In this document: positions 14,495-64,000 of the stretch, in pieces
How the letters are laid out: every line of letters starts with the position of its first letter
Position numbering within the stretch: the first letter of the stretch is position 1
DNA from: Octopus vulgaris
Lineage: Eukaryota
Direction: 5' to 3'
DNA: 64,000 bases
Assembly (NCBI GenBank): GCA_951406725.2
Contig: OX597827.1
Span: 56,916,001 to 56,980,000, forward strand
The notes under the pieces: generated by a model
Told to the model about the DNA's origin: nothing
The model's database searches: none
The model's input: only the letters and a program-made list of their open reading frames with translations
Translations under genes and position numbers: made by a program

Positions 14495-14580
14495 CCTTCA
14501 ACCCAGGTGAGTGCATGATGTTGATGAGTCACAAAAATGATGAAACATCGATGTCCATCACTCCCATATGGGGTTGAGGG
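14495..14580 (+). ncRNA. Canonical-architecture type I hammerhead (core C3->U), GUC after 14555
   Basis: Stem I tgatg/catca, extended by gag/ctc and ccttcaaccc/gggttgaggg. Core TTGATGA; stem II gtca-caaaaa-tgat; GAAA; stem III palindrome catcgatg; TC. Confidence 0.72.
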
Positions 14581-14594
14581 TGAGTTATCCCACC

Positions 14595-14679
14595 TGTCAA
14601 TGACTCTAAGGTGTCAATAACTCTAAGGTGTCAATGACTCTAAGGTGTCAATAACTCTAAGGTGTCAATAACTCTAAGG
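14595..14679. repeat. 17-bp minisatellite x5 (tgtcaatRactctaagg)
   Basis: Five contiguous units, G/A variants in the order G,A,G,A,A. Confidence 0.9.
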
Positions 14680-14959: not shown

Positions 14960-16195
14960 TACTATTCTTTCTTGGTTTTGTTCCTTTGAGGAATTCATTT
15001 GAGAATTTAGGTTATGCTTACAGTATGGATATGGAATAATACATCCCCTCAGAAACTCTTGAGTTTCTTTTGATGATGGGACGCTAACATGCAAGTGTTT
15101 GCATGTTAAGTATTTGGGTCCATTAAATTTGTGGTTCATTAAATTTGGACATTTCTATAGTTTCAGATTTTATATGCATACATGTGTGTGTATGTGTGTG
15201 TGTTTGGGTGGTTTTGTGTCTGTCTATGTCATTAATGCTATTTAAAGCCATTTACATCATCATCATCATCGTTTAACGTCCGCTTTCCATGCTAGCATGG
15301 GTTGGACGGTTCAACTGGGGTCTGTGAAGCTGGAAGGCTTCATCAGGCCCAGTTGAACCGTCCAACCCATGCTAGCATGGAAAACGGACGCTAAATGATG
15401 ATGATGATGATGATGATTTACATCCTGTAAGTTAGCAGTTTGACTTACAAAGATTGAGAAAAATAAGTAACAGACTTTAAAATTAATACTGGAGTAGACA
15501 CAATCTTTGAGGTGGCACTTTAGCATGGCTATAGTTATACAAATATACATTCATACATATCTATCAACCTGTCTATTTGTTTACCTATATACCTATTCTC
15601 TTTCCTTTGTTCCTTCATCCCTTTCTTCCTTCAGTTCTTCCAAGCTGTATCAATTTTAAAGATTGATGCCCATATACCAGCCCCTTAACCACTGAGCAAA
15701 ATTAGGTTTTGACTCTTCAATTAACCATTTGTCTTTCTTGTATATCATGTGATACACAGGACATATTTCCCTGGTGTCATTGCATCATATATGATACATA
15801 TATTGATACACATTCCCAATGTTTTTCAATCACCAGAATAACTTGGAACTTAGAATGTATGAAATAGGAGTTAACTAAAAATCTGAAAACAAGCATGGAT
15901 ATTTTGGACAGACTTATGAAAATACTTTGGACAGGCAATGGGCTATCTAAAGAAACAGTGCAATGCCTGTTGTAAATTTTGAAATCAAAAAGTTTAAATC
16001 TTATTGCAACATGCTGACTCTCTCAAATACATATACCTCCAAGACTTTGTTTTAACATCGCAGAATGAAGTCTTAGCTACTGTAATGATTCAGAAATCAT
16101 TTATAAAATTACTATTTTTCTTTGGTAGGTTCAATTTTACCGTTTTGTTATTTTTTTGTCATTTTAAAGCATATTATTTCTATATTCTTCCTCAG

Positions 16196-16358
16196 GACTG
16201 ACTGGCAGTCTGCTAAAAGTGTGTTAGCTGACCAAAACTTTTTGAAAACCCTCCGTAGTTATGACAAGGATCATATACCCGATCCTTTATTGAGAAAACT
16301 CAAAGTCTATATTGATAACCCAAAATTCTTTCCTGAGATTGTTGAGAATGTCTCCAAG
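16196..16358 (+). CDS. DNAH6: DNAH6-like exon 4 (MTBD)
   Basis: cag|G..AAG|gtaaat, 163 nt. Reads TDWQSAKSVLADQNFLKTLRSYDKDHIPDPLLRKLKVYIDNPKFFPEIVENVSK. Confidence 0.92.
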
Positions 16359-17100
16359 GTAAATATTCATTTTTATATTTTGGGTTTGTTCAGTTTTTGA
16401 TAACTGTCATTTGTATTCTGTTTACATTACTCTTTTCACTGTTAGTTTGTGTTGGCTGGTGTTGGTTAGATGCATATCGTTATTTGACTCCATCAAATAT
16501 CATTTAATCTGTTTCTGCCAGCTCGCCCCCTCACAAACATATTCTAACTAACTTAAACTTTCAATTTCCACAGACCCTGCCAGCTCAGAATAAATATATA
16601 ATATCTAAGAGGACTACTACAATGACACCCTAAAAGCATTCTCTCCCACTTAGCCCATATAAGCATGAAATGGATGCAACATCAATAACCTTGCTGATTC
16701 CAAACCCCATACTGCAATGCACACCACAAACTATAAGTACAAATGAACAACCATTGTAGTCTTCTGACTAAGTCCACCTTAACACCTTTACTCTTGCTAT
16801 CAAAGAAATTGACTAGATTATAAAGAGTGCAATATGTCTGCAGCTGGCTGCTGGATTATACAGCATGACCTTCAGTTAGATCAGTGGTTCTCAACTGCGA
16901 TCTATATGTTCCTTGAGGGTCCATATGTCCTTTGGGAGTCCATATGTCCCTTGGGGGTCCATATGTCCCTTGGGGATCTGTTTAAAATTTCGATCTTAAA
17001 ATTTGTGTAATAAATTGCTTATACTTCTACAGTATTAAAATATTTTGATTTTCTAAAATAATTCCTAATAATATTTAATTATAAAAATACAGTAAGAATT

Positions 17101-17135
<35 letters not shown>

Positions 17136-17394
17136 AAGCACGTGGCTCAGTGGTTAGGGTGTCAGCATCATGATCGTAAGATTGTGGTTTCGATTCCAGG
17201 ACCGGGTGACGTGTTGTGTTCTTGAGCAAAACACTTCATTTCACGTCACTCCATTCCACTCAGCTGGCAAAAATGAGTAACGCTGCGATGGACTGGCGTC
17301 CTGTCCAGGTGGGGAGCACATACGCCATAGAAATCGGGAAACCGGGCCCATGAGCCTGGCTAGGTCTTTAAAAGGGGGCATTTATTTATTTATT

Positions 17395-17425
<31 letters not shown>

Positions 17426-17539
17426 AGTACAGCAAAATTTAGATTCAGATGAATATGGTACTTAAGTTAAAGGCACCAGAATTTTGTATGGTATTATCTA
17501 TATAAATCAAATGGGGTGATTTAATTGGAAAATTCTAAA

Positions 17540-17627
17540 AGTGGCTGAAGATTGCTCGTCATTTTAAAACTGATGTAATACTTACAGTGTTCAATAAAAT
17601 GAAGTAGCATGAAACAATTGTACTACT
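17540..17627 (+). ncRNA. Penelope-type minimal-stem-III hammerhead motif, GUA after 17622
   Basis: agtgg CTGAAGA ttgct...agcat GAAA c-aatt-g TA ctact. Confidence 0.62.
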
Positions 17628-17817
17628 CTACCTTGGATATACTTGTTGCTTATTTTGATTATGTATATATATATATATATATATATATAAATATATCACA
17701 ATCAAGGAACGGCCATAATAGGCCATTCACCCACTAGAAATAACAGCCAAAAGCTTTAACCGCAAAATAACATTAATTCCGTAAACCAGGAGAAAATTGA
17801 AAAACTTTTACCCTGTA

Positions 17818-17924
17818 ATTTCTTAGACGATGCACCGTTTCATCTACCGTTTAATGGTAAACTAACCTGATTAAATTAAATCAAGCCAATCCACCATAGG
17901 CCCTTAGACTCATCAGTAAGAAAT
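17818..17924 (-). ncRNA. Type I hammerhead ribozyme on the inverted arm, cleavage between 17826 and 17825
   Basis: Exact reverse complement of 18710..18816. Confidence 0.85.
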
Positions 17925-18709
17925 AGCCAAGTCGGAACAGATATTTTTCACGAGGCATTCCTCTTGCTACCTCGGCAATATCTGACCTAAAATTTTCAAA
18001 TCGTCGCACTCGCGCCAAATTTATCGGCAGCAAATAAATATAAGCCACCGATTCCATTACGGAACTAACCAGAAAATTCATAATTAATCAATATAGGGTG
18101 GCAAAAAAAATTTTGTAGAATTCTTTTGCCACCAGCGGCCTAGTAGGAAAAAATTAAATAGTCATAAACCATTTTTACGTTCAACATCACAATCAAGGAA
18201 CGGCCATAATAGGCCATTCACCCACTAGAAATAACAGCCAAAAGCTTTAACCGCAAAATAACATTAATTCTCGTAAACCAGGAGAAAATTGAAAAACTTT
18301 TACCCTGTAATTTCTTATAAGAAATTACAGGGTAAAAGTTTTTCAATTTTCTCCTGGTTTACGGTATTAATGTTATTTTGCGGTTAAAGCTTTTGGCTGT
18401 TATTTCTAGTGGGTGAATGGCCTATTATGGCCGTTCCTTGATTGTGATGTTGAACGTAAAAATGGTTTATGACTATTTAATTTTTTCCTACTAGGCCGCT
18501 GGTGGCAAAAGAATTCTACAAAATTTTTTTTGCCACCCTATATTGATTAATTATGAATTTTCTGGTTAGTTCCGTAATGGAATCGGTGGCTTATATTTAT
18601 TTGCTGCCGATAAATTTGGCGCGAGTGCGACGATTTGAAAATTTTAGGTCAGATATTGCCGAGGTAGCAAGAGGAATGCCTCGTGAAAAATATCTGTTCC
18701 GACTTGGCT

Positions 18710-18816
18710 ATTTCTTACTGATGAGTCTAAGGGCCTATGGTGGATTGGCTTGATTTAATTTAATCAGGTTAGTTTACCATTAAACGGTAGATGAAACGGT
18801 GCATCGTCTAAGAAAT
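18710..18816 (+). ncRNA. Type I hammerhead ribozyme, predicted cleavage GUC after 18808
   Basis: Stem I atttctta/taagaaat; core CTGATGA 18718-24; stem II gtcta/tagat; GAAA 18793-96; stem III cgg-tgca-tcg; then TC. Confidence 0.88.
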
Positions 18817-19200
18817 TACAGGGTAAAAGTTTTTCAATTTTCTCCTGGTTTACGGAATTAATGTTATTTTGCGGTTAAAGCTTTTGGCTGTTATTTCTAG
18901 TGGGTGAATGGCCTATTATGGCCGTTCCTTGATTGTGATGTTGAACGTAAAAATGGTTTATGACTATTTAATTTTTTCCTACTAGGCCGCTGGTGGCAAA
19001 AGAATTCTACAAAATTTTTTTTGCCACCCTATATTGATTAATTATGAATTTTCTGGTTAGTTCCGTAATGGAATCGGTGGCTTATATTTATTTGCTGCCG
19101 ATAAATTTGGCGCGAGTGCGACGATTTGAAAATTTTAGGTCAGATATTGCCGAGGTAGCAAGAGGAATGCCTTGTGAAAAATATCTGTTCCGACTTGGCT

Positions 19201-19307
19201 ATTTCTTACTGATGAGTCTAAGGGCCTATGGTGGATTGGCTTGATTTAATTTAATCAGGTTAGTTTACCATTAAACGGTAGATGAAACGGTGCATCGTCT
19301 AAGAAAT
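19201..19307 (+). ncRNA. Type I hammerhead ribozyme (copy 2), cleavage after 19299
   Basis: Identical to 18710..18816, offset +491. Confidence 0.88.
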
Positions 19308-19691
19308 TACAGGGTAAAAGTTTTTCAATTTTCTCCTGGTTTACGGAATTAATGTTATTTTGCGGTTAAAGCTTTTGGCTGTTATTTCTAGTGGGTGAAT
19401 GGCCTATTATGGCCGTTCCTTGATTGTGATGTTGAACGTAAAAATGGTTTATGACTATTTAATTTTTTCCTACTAGGCCGCTGGTGGCAAAAGAATTCTA
19501 CAAAATTTTTTTTGCCACCCTATATTGATTAATTATGAATTTTCTGGTTAGTTCCGTAATGGAATCGGTGGCTTATATTTATTTGCTGCCGATAAATTTG
19601 GCGCGAGTGCGACGATTTGAAAATTTTAGGTCAGATATTGCCGAGGTAGCAAGAGGAATGCCTTGTGAAAAATATCTGTTCCGACTTGGCT

Positions 19692-19798
19692 ATTTCTTAC
19701 TGATGAGTCTAAGGGCCTATGGTGGATTGGCTTGATTTAATTTAATCAGGTTAGTTTACCATTAAACGGTAGATGAAACGGTGCATCGTCTAAGAAAT
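19692..19798 (+). ncRNA. Type I hammerhead ribozyme (copy 3), cleavage after 19790
   Basis: Identical to 18710..18816, offset +982. Confidence 0.88.
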
Positions 19799-20020
19799 TA
19801 CAGGGTAAAAGTTTTTCAATTTTCTCCTGGTTTACGGAATTAATGTTATTTTGCGGTTAAAGCTTTTGGCTGTTATTTCTAGTGGGTGAATGGCCTATTA
19901 TGGCCGTTCCTTGATTGTGATGTTGAACGTAAAAATGGTTTATGACTATTTAATTTTTTCCTACTAGGCCGCTGGTGGCAAAAGAATTCTACAAAATTTT
20001 TTTTGCCACCCTATATTGAT

Positions 20021-20063
<43 letters not shown>

Positions 20064-20759
20064 AATGACTTTGGAGGTCCAGCAGAGTAAAATATGGATT
20101 AAAGGGGTCCATAAGCAAGAGTTAGATGAAGACATGGTATTAGTGGGAAGAAGGATGAATGGGTCACTTCTCATTGTTTAACTTGATCAGAGTTAACTCA
20201 AAACTTAGTAATAACAACAATGTCATCATCAATTCCAGCATTTTTCACTGAGCATATAACATCTATACACAGTAATACGCCCATATTAGTCTGACTACTG
20301 TTCTCGTATGTATTAATTAATATTGTTGATTGATTATTCAATGTATATATTACTAATTAACTACCTATGACTAAAATAAAATACTGCCAGAAGGGGAAAA
20401 TGCAGATATAAATTAATTAAAATTTTCTTTAAAATTTTGCTTTAAAAACCAGAAAAGCTGCCCAACCAAAGTGTTCTATAACAATCATTATGATTTTTTA
20501 GAGAATGCAATTCTCTTGGTCAACATTATGATGAATAGAAATAGAAAATGTTAATATTAACACAGTTAATTAATTTCTAGGCTATGGAGCTGTTTACAAA
20601 TAATAATCATTTGTTTTCTTTAAAGTGTAACTAAGAAGCATTGACTCTCATTCAAATGTAAAAGACTTCATTCAGTTTTCCCCAAGCTGCCTCTGCTATA
20701 CAATACAGAAAAATGAAATAGCCATTGGCAACGAATTGTTCCTTTATGCATTACACTGC

Positions 20760-20905
<146 letters not shown>

Positions 20906-22822
20906 TAGTAGTCTTGTATATAAGTTGCTTTTTTTCTTTTTTCTTTTTGTACATGTTCTTTCAAACAAAACCAATTATGAATTATATTTAACAGTTTTAA
21001 TACATAGTTTTGTTTTGTTCTAAATTTATTGCATTTTCTGAATCTATAGGATGTTGAAAGAAAATGAAAGGAGATAGTTTTGAAAAATTGGAAACATAGC
21101 TATTAAAGCAAATAAAAAAAGCAAAAAAACAAAACAAAAACAAATAAACAAAAATATTAATTTCCAAGTGTTTATGACAGCTTCTATCTGATTGAAATAA
21201 ACATTTGCATTTATTTTTAAGTTACTAGTACTTCCGATGGAAATATATGATACATAGCAAGGAAGAGGTTTTGTTTCATACACATGATCTATTTAATGTT
21301 TATGATTTATGCTTGGTTGGGGTAGGTGCACTTGCTTCGTGAAGTTTTGCAGAATACAATGCACACTGATTTTTTGCCCCATGTAGCTACTTACCTCTGT
21401 TTAAGTAGTAGCCTGATCTCCCTGAAATTGCATATACTCTTTTACTGGTTTCAGTTATTTGACTGTAGCCATGCTGGAGCACCACCTTTTAGTCAAGCAA
21501 ATCGACCCCAGGACTTATTCTTTCTAAGCCTAGTACTTATTCTATCAGTCTCTTTTGCTGAACCGCTAAGTTACGGGGATGTAAACACACCAGCATCGGT
21601 TGTCAAGCGATGTTGCGGGGACAAACACAGACACATAAACATACACACACATACATATACATATACATATATATATACATATACATATATACGACGGGCT
21701 TCTTTCAGTTTCCGTCTAGCAAATCCACTCACAAGGCTTTGGTCAGCCCGAGGCTATAGTAGAAGACACTTGCCCAAGGTGCCACGCAGTGGGACTGAAC
21801 CCAGAACCATGTGGTTTGTAAGCAAGTTACTTACCACACAGCCACTTATGCCTATTATTATTATTAAAATATTATTATTTTTAAAATGAAAAACACCTTG
21901 GATAATACAGTCTGAGATATACAACAAAGATGAGATGGTCATAGTGGAATGGCTTTGATCATAGGTGCAGGCATGGCTGTATCATTAAGAAGTCTGCTTT
22001 CTAACCACATGATTTTAGGTTTAGCCCCACTGCATGGCCCCTTTGTCATGTGTATATTTCTCTAGCCCTGGGCAGACCAAAACCTTGTGAGTGAATCTGG
22101 TAGATAGAAACTGAAGGATTATTTATATATATACACACTTGTACACTTGTGAAGGAACATGGCTCAGTGGTTAGTGTTGGGCTCACAATCATGAGGTTTG
22201 ATCCCCAGACTGGGCTGTGTGTTGTACCCTTGAGCAAGACACTTTATTTCACATTACTCCAGTTCACTCAGCTGTAGAAATGAGTTGTGATGCCACATGT
22301 GCTGAGCTGTATTCGCCTTTGCCTTTCCCTTGGATGACATCAGTGGTGTGGAGAAGAGGAGGCTGGTATGCATGGGCGACTGCTGGTCTTTCATATAAAA
22401 CCTTGCCCAGACTTGTTCCGCGGAGGGTAACATTCTAGGAGCTATCTCATGGTCATTCATGACTGAAGGGGGTCTTTATCCTTTACTCTTTTACACACTT
22501 GCACACATTTATATGTGTGTATGTGTGTGTATAAATGCATGTGTGCATGTGTGTGCCTGTTTGTTTTGACATTGTGCAATAATTGTAAACAAGCATCTCC
22601 ATACAAGTGATGTTGTTTGTTTCCAGCCCTCCATGGAAAACATATCTGGTCATGGAGGAAATGTCATCTTGCATATAAATAGATGAGAGTAGACTATTAG
22701 AAGGGTGTAGAAAATCTGCTTCATCAAATTCCATCTGATGCATAAGAGTATAGGAAAGGGGACATTAAAAACGATAGAAGTGTTAGATATAGAAATATAG
22801 TAGTAATAATATATATATATAT

Positions 22823-22901
<79 letters not shown>

Positions 22902-22903
22902 TG

Positions 22904-23242
22904 TGACATATTTTAACTTCTAATGGTAAATTCACTGCAATTACCATAGAGAAAAGATTCTCTCTTATGGTAAAAAGGTGTAAATACACCATACATCTCT
23001 AATGCTGCCCCCTGTCAAATTTCCAGACAGTCTTAAAGCTATGGCTTTAATTAAGTCTGTCCAGAGTTGCCTCTCTTTGGTATTTCCCATTGGTAATTGC
23101 TAAAGAGCTAGAAACACATATGGGAATCCAACGGGGAGCAGCACTGGACAGATGTGGTGTTTTTGCATCTTTTTATTGTAAGTGAGAAGTTTTTCTCCAT
23201 GGTAACTGCAGTGAATTTGCCTTTAGAAGCTGAAATATGTCA
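22904..23242. mobile_element. Old foldback/MITE with ~120-bp imperfect inverted arms
   Basis: tgacatattttaacttctaatggtaaattcactgcaattacc... versus ...ggtaactgcagtgaatttgcctttagaagctgaaatatgtca. Confidence 0.7.
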
Positions 23243-24864
23243 GAAGCATATTTTAACTAACCTAAAATTTGCTTATGCCTAAACATTGCTTGGTGTTGAA
23301 AAAGCATCCAGTGTTTGGAAGGGCATCCAACTGTAAAAAAGCATCCAGGTGTTTGGAAAGGGCATCCAACTGAAAAAAACCCATCCCAAAACTGATGTTG
23401 CCTGTGCTTGTGCCACATAAAAAGCAAACTGTACACTCTGCTGGGTGGTTGATGTTAGGAAGGGCAACCCTTTGTACTTTCTTTTATTGGCTGTGACAGT
23501 ATTCTATCACAGACATCAACTGTAACTGAGAAGGTCTCTGATAAAAGGCTTTCTAACCAAGAATACCACATTTATTATTCAGACATAGTGTATCTTAGAC
23601 TACATTATTCAATGTTTCCCCAACTCTTTTTAAGGTGGTAGAATGTGATTGGAGCAAAATTTTCCTGTTATCTTTCGTAGGTTGTTTATTCTATCTAAAA
23701 TTTATTTTATGTTGTTAAATTCAATGATGTCAGGATTTCTTCTGTAAGATTTCAGTAGATAAATGTAGAATGCTTCCAGATTTGAAATGAGTAAAGAATA
23801 TGTTGTGCATTTGGTATTAGTTATTGTTGATGTTGATCTTGGTATTGGTTTGAATAAAGAAGGCAGGTTGATGGAGATCATGGCCTTTAGGATTTCTTAT
23901 AGCTCTAAGCAAAAACTTCCACTATTTAGTATCAGTCGAGGAAATCTTTCCATATTATTCCAAAATATAATTTAGGAACAGTTGCATTGTCTTTTTGATT
24001 TTCGTTTATTTATTTGTATATTTCTTTTTTTTTTCTTAGAAAAATTAATTACTATTTTCCAGCAGCTTTCATTTAATTCTAGTTTGTGATTTTTGGCTGG
24101 AAGGTGTAATATAAACTTCTATTATAGAAACATGCCTTGTTTTCACTAAGAATATATTGAGATTAATTTTACATTTTCTTCAACATTGAGAAAATTCTTT
24201 AAATCATCAAATGAGATTTATTGAAATGTTATCTTTGATTTTATAACATTTTTTTAAATACTGTGTATATTTTGTTTAATGTATTTTGTTTAAAAAACGG
24301 AGATGAAATTATGTAAGCAGTGGCTTTTAAATTTTAAAAATTCCCATAACTCTTTAGCCTTTTCAGTGAAAATTAAAAATAAAAGTGCAAAAAGGATTTA
24401 ACAATTTGTTAATGGATAAAACAATGTGCAACTGTGATTTCTTGTTTTTCTCCTGGGCACAATTACGTGTGTGCACACAGGACCTGTTTTACCTAACTGA
24501 TTACATTTTAATATATGCAAATCATTAGCTTAAAAATTATTTAAAAACATTAATGATTTTTCTAGTTATATATTTATCACTCTTTTGTAATACAACAACA
24601 CATTATGAAAATTAAATGAATGCAATCTGTGATTTTAACATCTTTTCAGTTTTTTGCTTTTCTTGTTATAAAGCAGAAAGCAAATATCTCACTTTTGGCA
24701 GTTGTATAATTTACAATTTTGATAAATCATGTCTGACTTAAGTTGAGAAGATTCGTAACTGTCGAGTCTTTGAAATACTTAGTAATATTTGCATAATGTT
24801 AACATAATTAACTATGTGTGAGTGTTACTGTATTACTTGATAAAACGTCTGTTCCAATTTTCAG

Positions 24865-24947
24865 GCTTGTAAATCATTGTGTATGTGGGTGAGAGCTATT
24901 AACTTGTATGCATACGTTTTTCGAGCAGTCCAACCCAAACAGCAACG
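24865..24947 (+). CDS. DNAH6: DNAH6-like exon 5 (MTBD end / CC2 start)
   Basis: cag|GCT..CG|gtaaga, 83 nt. Reads [28 protein letters not shown]. Confidence 0.92.
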
Positions 24948-37589: not shown

Positions 37590-38210
37590 TATTGAGTCAT
37601 CCCATAAATAATGTGTTTTTCAATTGCATGAACTAAAAGTCAAAGAGAGATGGGATTAACTACCTGCATCAACTTGCTATAAAAGCAAGTAGTAATTGTA
37701 CCTTGTACTTATTCTTAGTGCAAGTTTTGAAGAGTGCTGTTTGATTTTAACAGTTATTTTTTCAAAGCTATTATGGAAGTGACAAAGGAGCATATTTGGC
37801 TTATTTTGCTTTATGAGTTCAATAAAGGCAAAAATGCAACAGAAAGTGTAAGAAATATTAATGCAGTCTTTGGGGATTGGACAATAAACATAAGCCAGTA
37901 TCAACAGTGGTTCCAGATATTCCGAGCTGGAAACTACAGCCTAGAAGACAAGCTTTGTCCTGGAAGATCTGTAGAGCTCAACAAGGACATCCTGCAAACC
38001 CCTGTGGAACAAAATCTCATAATAACTGTTGAGGAATTTGCAAAGAAGCTTGGATTTGGTCATTCAACCATTCATCGACATCTGCGTGCCATTGGGAAAG
38101 TCAGTAGTTTGTGTCATTGAGTTCCTCACAAACTTTCTGAGTCTAATCACGCACAGAGAGCGATTGTGTGCTCTTCTTTGCTGTTATGTCTCACAAATGA
38201 ACCTTTTTTG
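37590..38210 (+). mobile_element. Mariner transposon 5' fragment (HTH region)
   Basis: MEVTKEHIWLILLYEFNKGKNATESVRNINAVFG...WFQIFRAGNYSLED...STIHRHLRAIGKV...*VPHKL. Confidence 0.85.
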
Positions 38211-58846: not shown

Positions 58847-60797
58847 GTAAAATTCAAATACTGAAATAAATCTCAACCTATAGCTGAGAAGTAAACATCT
58901 GCTGTTTATAAAATTGTGTGTGTGTGTGTATTTTTTTTTTTTTTAGTATGTGTCCTGCTAGATTTAGATATTGGCTTTATGGCTTTGAGGTAAACATACG
59001 CCTAAAATTCTTAACATCATTAAATTAGAACTTGTCATTTGATAATGTATGGAACAGAATTGGCCAATTTATCAACTATTTTGAATACTGAGCTGTATTT
59101 AGTGAGATGCTTGTTTCAAATGTATTTATAGTCTTACTATTTCTAAACTAAAATAATAGATTTTTATTTTTATGAAAAAGTTCTTTTTGCTTTGAAGATT
59201 TGCAGAAGATGGAATAGTCAAGTAAGTCTGCTGTAGTTCATATGTTACCTGTTGCTTAACCCCAGATTGGTTCTGGTTGAGTAACCTTATGATCAAAAAT
59301 ATTTCACCTATGATCATCTGATGGTTTCTTTTTTATCAAATATAATATATCTAGTGCTGTATAATATAAAGTATTCTTCCTTTATTTAAAATGCTAATGT
59401 GCCCATGCTAGTAGGGTGCCAAGAGCACTATCTGAGCGTGATCGTTGCCGGAGGGCATGATTCATGTGTGATCGTTACCAGCGTCGCCTTACTGGCACCT
59501 GTGTAAAAAGATTCAAGCGAGGTCATTGCCAGTACCGCCTGACTGGCCCCGTGCAGGTGGCACATAAAAAGCACCCACTACACTCTCGGAGTGGTTGGCA
59601 TTAGGAAGGGCATCCAGCTGTAGAAACTCTGCCAGATCAGACTGGAGCCTGGTGCAGCCATCTGGTTCACCAGTCCTCAGTCAAATCGTCCAACCCATGC
59701 TAGCATGGAAAGCGGACGTTAAACGATGATGATGATGATGAATGAGTGAGATTTGGCTCCTGATGTATTATACTCTATATAGCTTGTTACTGAAGTGATT
59801 GAGTACAAATCTCTCAATGTTTGTGTTACCTATGAACCAGGTGAGAATTAATAAAATAAGAAGATGTGATTTAATCAAATCTACCCAAGCAAAAAATTAT
59901 AAGTATCCCTACTTTGAAGACAACAGTTTTAATTGCACATTTCTAAGTTAGTGGTGAAGCCACATGGCTCAGAGCATTGGGCTCATAACCATGAGGTAGT
60001 GAGTTCAATTACCAGCCTGTGCTGTGTTTTGTGTTATTGAGCAAGACACTTTATTTCATGTTGCTTCAGTTCACTCAGCTGTAGAAATGAATTGCAGCAT
60101 CACTGGTGCCAAGCTGTGTCAGCCTTTGTCTTTCCCTTGGATAACATCAGTGGCATGGAGAAGGGAGGCTGGTATGCATGGGTGACTGCTGGTCTTTCAT
60201 AAACAACTTTGCCCAGACTTATGTCTCGGTGGGGAATCTTCTAGGTGCAATCATATGGTCATTCATGATATATATATATACTTTATTTAAAGCAGAAGAA
60301 AATTCAACAAAACCTGTTACTCTGAGTTTCCCGTTGCTGTTCATTTTTAAACGATGAACGGCAACAGGAAACTCAGAGTAACAGGTTTTGTTGAATTTTC
60401 TGCTGCTTTAAATAAAGCATATTACTCTACCACTGGTATTTGAGTACTCTTTTTTTCCACCTTGTTTCACATTTATGTGTTTACTCCGGTATATATATAT
60501 ATATATGTTGAACTGTTCAATTGAATATGTGTGATCTAGGAAAAATTCTGTCCATATGTCATATATGTAATGAAAATTTGGGACTGTTAGTTACGGTTTT
60601 GGAATTTTTAATGGAATTATATTGAGGAAAATTAGAGAAGCAAAATTGTATGTATTGAATCATCAAAAGTGTAGTCTATGAAGGAGAGAAGGTGAAAAAG
60701 TTACTACTCAGTTCACATTATTCTAAACCCTTTAGTAGTTAATTACTATTTTTAAATATCACAACGAGAGATATTCAGCAACAGTACTTTGGAGTAA

Positions 60798-62740: not shown

Positions 62741-62965
62741 TCAAGATGCCACACAGTGGGACTGAATCCAGAAATTTGAACTCAGAATGTGATGATGGAT
62801 GAAATGCCACTAAGCATCTCACCCAGTGTGCTAACGATTCTGCCAGCTTGCTGCCTTAATAATTATAATAATAATAATGATAATAATAATAATAACAATA
62901 ACAATAATAATAATAATAATGATAATAATAATAATAATAACAATAACAATAATAATAATAATAAT

Positions 62966-64000
62966 AGCAACCCCCACACATGGATCCTCGAAACACTAGC
63001 CATTAACAAAGTAGCACCAACAATCATAAAATTCATAGAGCACTCTATGAATAAATGGCAAACAGTCCTACACCTCCAAACAAAAGAGGGACTCATGAAA
63101 ACCAAAGACATCCCCATTAGAAGAGGAATATTCCAGGGAGACACGCTCTCTCCACTCCTTTTCTGCTTGGCACTGTCACCTCTATCTGATATGCTAAATA
63201 GAACTGGATGCAGATATAAATGTTACGGCAAAACGATCAGCCACCTTTTATATATGGATGACCTAAAACTATACGCTGCAAATGACAAACAGCTGGAAAC
63301 ACTATTAAAGACAGTTCATGGATTTACCAAAGAAATAGATATGAAATTTGGATTAGAAAAATGCGCCAAAGTAACCATGAAAAGAGGAAAACTAGTTAAG
63401 AGTAACAACATCACACTAGATAAAACCAATGAAATAAAAGAATTAGACCAAAGCCAAACTTACAAATACTTAGGAATCCATGAACTAGATAAGACACAAC
63501 ACACACAAATGAAAGAGAAAATAAAAAAAGAATATTATAGACGAGTTAGATCAATACTAAACACAGAGCTCAATGCTAAAAACAAGATAATAGGTATCAA
63601 CACTTAAGCTGTCCCAGTTATAAGTTACAGCTACAATATCCTTAACTGGACACGAAATGAACTGACCAAAATAGATAGGAAAACAAGAAAAATAATGACA
63701 GGATCTAGGATGCATCACCCAAAATCTGACATAGAAAGACTATATATACAACGTATAGAAGGTGGTAGAGGCCTTATACAGCTGGAAAACTACTATAAAA
63801 TAACCACCATAGGACTGCAAAAATATCTACTTCAGAAGGAAGGAAAACTGATCCAGATAGCGGCAAAACACGAGCAAAACAAAAAACTGTTCTCAGTATT
63901 TAAGGAAGCTGACAAATACAAACAAGAAATCATACCACCTAATAAACATGAAGAAGAAGAAGAAGATGAAGAAACAACAAAAGCTATAAAACAAATGAAA
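62966..64000 (+). mobile_element. 5'-truncated R4/Dong-like non-LTR retrotransposon RT, inserted at (AAT)n, one in-frame stop
   Basis: RT motifs RRGIFQGDTLSPLLF, SHLLYMDDLKLYA and MKFGLEKCA. TAA at 63605-07; the same frame continues AVPVISYS...HHPKSDIERLYIQRIEGGRGL to the window end. Confidence 0.88.

Follow-up and report, generated by a model that had tools for sequence, protein, structure and literature searches.

A young hammerhead-bearing retrozyme family of Octopus vulgaris with two-armed insertions of the Penelope-like type

The window analysed here, a stretch of 64,000 nucleotides of the Octopus vulgaris genome (GCA_951406725.2, contig OX597827.1, positions 56,916,001 to 56,980,000), carries a dynein heavy-chain gene, and an insert built of 491-nt units lies within the intron of this gene at 16359-24864. 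The dynein setting had been proposed in a first-pass annotation of the same DNA and was borne out by a Pfam MT match in the upstream exon; judged from the best PDB match of the one exon searched, DNAH6, the host gene appears to be DNAH6-like. The features of the locus are listed below in window coordinates, with unit position 1 being the base that follows the predicted ribozyme cut site.

16196..16358, plus strand: upstream dynein exon (stalk), start approximate; Pfam MT 141-194, E 6.5e-07; donor site
17684..17694, plus strand: left copy of the target duplication, 11 nt, within an interrupted (TA)n tract; identical 11 nt at 20023-20033
17695..18317, minus strand: left arm, 1.27 units, made of a full unit (17826-18317) and positions 1-131 (17695-17825); running from the cut site (5' end) to the fixed site 131 (3' end)
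17818..17924, minus strand: type I hammerhead, minus copy; core 17916, predicted cut 17826|17825
18272..18363, no strand: perfect palindrome with 46-bp arms, centred on 18317|18318, the cut-site start of both arms
18318..20022, plus strand: right arm, 3.47 units, 3' end at the fixed site 232-237; units R1 18318-18808, R2 18809-19299, R3 19300-19790, and positions 1-232 at 19791-20022
18710..18816, plus strand: hammerhead 1, predicted cut after 18808
18940..19045, plus strand: 106-nt "tail" segment, unit positions 132-237 (R2 shown), between the two fixed priming sites, with a G/C-closed hairpin inside
19201..19307, plus strand: hammerhead 2, predicted cut after 19299
19228..19271, plus strand: 19-bp hairpin of the 58-nt loop II; every unit has it (R2 shown)
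19692..19798, plus strand: hammerhead 3, predicted cut after 19790
20023..20033, plus strand: right copy of the target duplication, 11 nt, followed by (TA)n
24865..24947, plus strand: downstream dynein exon, recognised by peptide motif and splice signals alone

The insert consists of two head-to-head arms that both begin at unit position 1 and are joined exactly at the predicted cut site, the left arm ending at position 131 and the right arm at position 232. The (TA)n tracts noticed earlier at both flanks carry the 11-nt interrupted TA word that is duplicated on either side of the insert as its target duplication. The earlier description of the locus as an array holds for the plus-strand tandem at 18318-20022 (TRF period 491, 3.5 copies, 99% matches) but fails as that of a plain array, since the inverted arm precedes it. 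As had been claimed, the units are near-identical: R3 equals R2, which served as reference, R1 differs from R2 by 2 substitutions, and the minus-strand unit differs from it by 1 insertion and 1 substitution. Because R2 and R3 have in common a private C-to-T change at a CpG, some of the tandem growth appears to be post-insertional, and a later duplication of a unit in the right arm is suggested. The unit has a GC content of 36.7%, and the earlier statement that the insert lacks a convincing protein frame was upheld, the longest Met-started frame being of 66 aa and a 68-aa frame having no Pfam match.

Elsewhere in the window, a lone hammerhead-like motif at 14509-14575 (plus strand) was matched by Rfam HH9 at 26.2 bits, below the cut-off; its core has U where C3 is expected, a 17-nt tandem repeat adjoins it at 14595-14679, and it bears no relation to the 491-nt unit. 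A fragment of a non-LTR retrotransposon reverse transcriptase (RT) lies at 62780-64000 (plus strand; Pfam RVT_1, E 1.2e-15) and a Mos1-type transposase fragment at 37731-38117. Short inverted repeats at 60286-60409 and 15279-15388 gave sub-threshold miRNA matches and are probably palindromes of other mobile elements. Rfam miRNA matches over the palindrome and over microsatellites were rejected, as they were below the cut-off and the hairpins explain them.

In agreement with the first-pass annotation, a complete type I hammerhead accompanies each unit, and the four intact copies have cut-site positions that agree with those proposed before. The CUGAUGA cores start at 18718, 19209 and 19700 on the plus strand and at 17916 on the minus strand, and stem I (8 bp), stem II (5 bp), GAAA, stem III (4 bp) and GUC are all present, the loop of stem III being the palindrome UGCA. 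The RF00163 (Rfam Hammerhead_1) search that had been recommended recovered the three plus-strand copies, but at 22 bits (E 0.089) against a gathering cut-off of 34, and the minus-strand copy was not listed; this sub-threshold score is probably due to the 58-nt loop II with its internal 19-bp hairpin.

The variation among genomic copies suggests that the hammerhead is under selection, with its core kept, its stems paired and compensatory changes among related rows. In 59 unique hammerheads of the 491-nt family (family A), N7 and the cut nucleotide (C or A) were the only core positions that changed frequently, and the paired cells amounted to 465/469 in stem I, 279/290 in stem II and 233/236 in stem III. 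The stem covariation anticipated earlier was observed at the stem II pair A412-U471, which is changed on both sides to G-C in 9 family-A rows, the relatedness of the rows limiting the statistics; loop III is replaced by another palindrome in 4 family-A rows, and the closing pair of stem II is G-U or A-U, with a mismatch in the sister family B. When families A and B were taken together, 95.5% of 494 cells were paired, against 29-44% with slid partners, and the hairpin of loop II was paired in 97.7% of cells. Changes on both sides were found in 6 of the 36 pairs, a count that among related rows is no higher than in shuffles (139/500).

Folding predictions for the ribozyme differ between one copy and two. 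A single copy is predicted to misfold, its core pairing with the cut-site strand (-34.2 versus -30.0 kcal/mol), and the unconstrained fold of the dimer is a double hammerhead (-77.9 versus -68.4 kcal/mol for two misfolded monomers). The modelling suggests cleavage as a dimer, an activity known for hammerheads with a palindromic loop III (PMC4209133; PMC7229834). Among nine predicted Xenopus retrozymes, eight are described as uncut in vitro (Li 2026, bioRxiv 10.64898/2026.07.22.740005).

The unit is dispersed through the genome in copies 98-100% identical to it. Searches with exact patterns, whose counts are lower bounds, placed end 237 directly against TA at 836 junctions and end 131 against TA at 433; the cut-site motif occurs 2,512 times, and the reversed-pattern controls gave 0. 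Two samples of loci were analysed. The first comprised 40 top-hit regions, selected for full units and length, of which 38 loci were counted after excluding a pair of regions that belong to a single array of about 20 units. The second comprised 79 chromosome-1 loci, namely 59 of the 62 listed end-237 places (the top-hit sample already contained the other 3) plus 20 loci located through end 131, with 1 listed end-131 place left out. The most informative feature of the family, absent from the first-pass annotation, is its two-armed layout with two fixed arm ends, at positions 131 and 237, which lie 106 nt apart. One arm per site was found in 58 of 59 head-to-head pairs on chromosome 1 and in 24 of 24 among the top hits (82/83 together), and the lone 237+237 row is apparently an internal fragment of locus L077. 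Locus L130, which pairs 131 with 131, was picked deliberately as an apparent exception and stands outside both samples. TA-like sequence adjoins 190 of the 199 resolved ends, and a target duplication of 10-11 nt is present at 8 of the 22 informative loci (shuffled mean 1.2, maximum 4) and absent from the other 14.

The inversion point varies across the whole unit, and many copies are single-armed and 5'-truncated. An exact cut-site palindrome centre occurs at 3 loci of the 2.8-Gb genome, the window's included; L232 and L233 consist solely of an arm 1-131 and an arm 1-232/237 joined at the cut site. L111 was rejected as a further case, its centre being the stem III palindrome. Arms longer than one unit made up 47 of 141. 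By far the longest arm, a single one with about 20 units, lies at L059-L060 (G000:C10, about 17.475-17.484 Mb) and is possibly a local expansion of satellite type. At L036 (3481-3488) the arm junction seems to pass over the ribozyme, connecting the two sides of stem I as though the RT had jumped across the base of the folded hairpin.

Sister family B, with a unit of about 475 nt and about 75% identity (L109 2340-2795; L201-L230), carries the same two fixed ends as family A. A block at window 19105-19135 (unit about 297-327) is conserved between the two families. Parts of it read like an E2F site and a CHR element, and a germ-line or cell-cycle promoter is possible on sequence grounds, as is chance. 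Contigs of four presumed RNA runs cover 19-30 of 30 bins, contigs being silent on ends, strand, circles and level.

The two arms of a locus resemble each other far more than they resemble arms elsewhere. Over 59 segregating sites, discordance was 0.6% within arms, 0.8% between the arms of one locus and 22.7% between loci, and at young loci it was 0.17% between the two arms versus 2.5% between loci. The 5' ends lie at most 15 nt apart in 14 of 52 simple chromosome-1 pairs, compared with 4.8 after shuffling (P 0.0004), and arm lengths differ by 106 +/- 20 nt in 15 of the same 52 pairs and in 0 of 20 top-hit pairs. From the shared haplotype and the nearness of the 5' ends, we infer that both arms were copied from one template.

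The 5' ends also bear a footprint of the cut site. At the first encounter, 24 of the 104 chromosome-1 arms that reach position 30 stop at positions 1-30, whereas the three 30-nt windows before give a background of 6-10% and the one after gives 7.5%; in one arm class alone 11 of 49 stop before the first cut site. At later encounters the stops fall to 5/55 (P 0.02), or 8/139 with the top hits added. The 24 early-stop arms come from 16 loci and hence are not all independent; only 1 of them stops exactly at position 1. The others are spread over 5-27, and some fall in a T-rich tract, where a clustering of arm ends could also result from microhomology joining. The excess was absent from the top-hit sample (4 observed versus 4.3 expected), and neither stops at the priming site of the other arm nor stops after a full turn were significantly enriched (16 bins). 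A structural stall would act at every pass, and therefore the 5'-end excess is best accounted for by templates of two kinds, cut linear RNA and circles free of a cut.

The insertions carry the signature of Penelope-like elements (PLEs), namely an inverted truncated arm, a one-end tail and a TA target, and the 491-nt element lacks the RT and GIY-YIG frame of an autonomous EN+ PLE. The genome does hold two young intact PLE families, whose frames, of 781 and 775 aa, encode both RT and GIY-YIG domains. A cysteine motif ahead of the nuclease, as described in PMC8557442, suggests that both belong to the Neptune clade; canonical PLEs are described there with a single frame. Both families adjoin (TA)n and have tails of about 30-40 nt. 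In the second, a short and a long end are paired head to head at 9/9 loci, and in the first at 4 loci among the matches listed. The first Neptune-like family (L181 429-5670; L184 768-4468) has an extra upstream frame of about 479 aa that gave no Pfam match above the cut-off. The second (L198, L234-L273), with a unit of about 4.27 kb inserted head to head in (TA)n, is extremely young, all 150 scored matches rounding to 100% identity.

The autonomous PLE with ends matching those of the unit, which the first-pass annotation had envisaged, was not encountered in the 50 PLE loci compared with the unit. A GIY-YIG scan of the genome gave 6,136 first-look candidates, and in the 50 PLE loci taken from them BLAST and a profile of the unit found 0 terminal repeats homologous to it. 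Neither intact Neptune-like family shares sequence with the 491-nt unit, and no canonical hammerhead was found in the two families (Rfam on 6 PLE loci, best 150 of 211 matches). A search with PLE proteins (tblastn) found no PLE frame fused to an arm in 153 retrozyme loci, and the young Neptune copies 1.2-1.8 kb from L047 and L066 were rejected as partners, being separate insertions with TA tracts of their own.

Taken together, we consider it probable that the insert is a non-LTR retrozyme whose head-to-head arms were inserted by a PLE RT-endonuclease copying one RNA from both ends of the break. In the proposed course, tandem copies would be transcribed and neighbouring hammerheads would pair through the palindromic stem III into a double hammerhead, predicted to release 491-nt monomers; a lone monomer is predicted to misfold, and hence a ligated circle would be stable. 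A PLE enzyme, probably as a dimer, would make a 10-11-nt staggered cut in (TA)n, and the DNA ends would prime at about 237 and about 131 of the same RNA, as the observed pattern of ends suggests. On a linear template that has been cut, both copies would extend as far as the cut site, its 5' end; on a circle they would roll past this site, leaving multi-unit arms with random stops. The two cDNA ends would then be joined, usually with some trimming, into the head-to-head insert. The copy in the window, whose right arm probably gained a unit after insertion, would stem from a linear template that had been cut at its 5' end but left uncut at one or more internal sites. In vitro, one PLE is described as starting RT at two sites and as cleaving and extending both strands, and a dimer is predicted for it (PMC11167929).

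A fuller reading is put forward tentatively, with slightly less than even weight. In it, a dimeric enzyme would start from either end of the 10-11-nt staggered break and prime the same small RNA at two sites separated by 106 nt; the hammerhead would cleave in the germ line, and the circle made by the ribozyme would be copied by rolling-circle RT, with a helper whose sequence has nothing in common with that of the retrozyme. What would tie cleavage and rolling together here is that arm ends are in excess at the first cut site and at no later one. At odds with a circle is the insert in the window itself, both arms of which cross a cut site and then end exactly at one. This same feature speaks for the best-surviving alternative, which we regard as unlikely, namely two-site PLE insertion without circles, from uncut multimers or by linear end-to-end jumps, with the ribozyme cutting occasionally. 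In its favour too are the predicted misfolding of the monomer, the homogeneity of source arrays, which keeps the haplotype test from separating circle from multimer, and the in vitro results with PAc, where the hammerhead was dispensable for insertion and uncut RNA was the dominant substrate (PMC11167929). Such a course should nevertheless raise stops at every cut site, and the later ones are at background; the dimer fold, moreover, favours cutting within multimers.

A considerably less probable origin is that the arms derive from two RNA molecules of one source locus, or that the first cDNA folded back to give the second arm. If a single locus dominated transcription in a cell, haplotypes would be shared as well, and fold-back is capable of making perfect palindromes, but two RNAs give no reason for one arm per site in 82 of 83 pairs, and fold-back leaves unaccounted both the fixed end of the second arm against TA and the 10-11-nt duplication. 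Very improbable is an element moved at the DNA level (a tandem-repeat MITE, a fold-back or a Helitron-type element) with the hammerhead as passenger: its inverted ends and TA targets would resemble those of microsatellite-targeting MITEs, yet the two ends of the insert differ in sequence, the inversion point is variable, and the many single-armed, 5'-truncated copies and the ribozyme-preserving variation also speak against it. An artefactual palindrome, made by long-read fold-back or in assembly, is hardly credible despite the perfect 46-bp inverted repeat at its centre, as the arms are unequal in length and end site, the flanks are unmirrored, a target duplication is present, and the same layout recurs at dozens of loci.

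Having set these alternatives aside to that extent, we return to the non-LTR retrozyme inserted by PLE-type machinery. At the level of sequence the element agrees with the definition of a non-LTR retrozyme. As in the metazoan non-LTR retrozymes described in PMC7229834 and Li 2026, its tandem units are non-coding with one type I hammerhead each, its GC content is below 50%, it lacks LTRs, its target duplication exceeds 4 bp, and PLEs coexist with it. Reported lengths are 170-400 nt (Cervera 2020, PMC7229834) and 51-972 bp (Li 2026, bioRxiv 10.64898/2026.07.22.740005), so that the "unusually long monomer" of the first-pass annotation lies inside the wider range and this part of its account is dropped. 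Its proposal that a non-LTR retrozyme was recently active with the help of a PLE agrees well with the data, given the near-identical copies, the PLE-type insertion marks and the preserved ribozyme. The octopus unit differs from those retrozymes in its 58-nt loop II with the 19-bp hairpin and in scoring below the Rfam cut-off, and from the descriptions in PMC7229834 and Li 2026, as far as their consulted parts extend, in its dispersed two-armed inserts with two fixed 3' ends. In Xenopus, 24 of 57 retrozyme families match a PLE terminal repeat (Li 2026), whereas none of the 50 octopus PLE loci offered such a match.

The octopus insertions are like those of the EN+ PLEs Neptune, Poseidon and Naiad (PMC8557442; PMC11167929) in their 5' truncation, partial tandems, inverted 5'-truncated copy, one-end tail, apparent priming from two internal sites and insertion into (TA)n or AT-rich DNA. 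In contrast to those PLEs, the octopus element has no RT or GIY-YIG frame, its 106-nt tail is three times the published 30-40 bp (PMC8557442), and its arms roll through several complete short units. Its hammerhead shares the palindromic loop III and a predicted double hammerhead with newt and axolotl satellite 2 and the minimal hammerheads of PLEs (PMC7229834; PMC4209133), but it has a full stem III, of 4 bp, where the PLE form is minimal; the monomer is predicted to be silenced by pairing of the core with the cut-site strand, and the satellite 2/PLE type by a stem III that is too short. In squid, 235 Rfam hammerheads are counted only, in the consulted part of the genome paper (PMC6962438).

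Neither the 491-nt family nor one-of-each end pairing in retrozymes was found in the literature searched, to which subscription journals, Repbase and Dfam did not belong, and the same search gave no report of the long loop II hairpin, the 106-nt tail or one-haplotype pairing. These last three and the quantified one-of-each pairing are what sets the octopus family apart, the length being unremarkable; the supplements of PMC7229834 and Li 2026 may list related families.

This family is real, young and ribozyme-bearing, and probably a parasite of PLE-type machinery; its cleavage and its circles are predictions. It displays a form of hammerhead that Rfam thresholds miss and that is present at about 2,500 genomic sites. 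In the window, the insert would place a 623-bp double-stranded region and up to three predicted sense-strand ribozymes in the dynein pre-mRNA. The formation of tandem and inverted PLE insertions is stated as open in PMC8557442, and both the helper of animal retrozymes and the copying of circles are only proposed in PMC7229834 and Li 2026 (bioRxiv 10.64898/2026.07.22.740005). With a 491-nt template, two mapped priming sites and a mapped stagger, the octopus family makes both points testable, and the intact young PLE enzymes of the same genome are helper candidates to try. If the fuller reading is true, the insertions of this family would be a genomic record of the PLE reaction.
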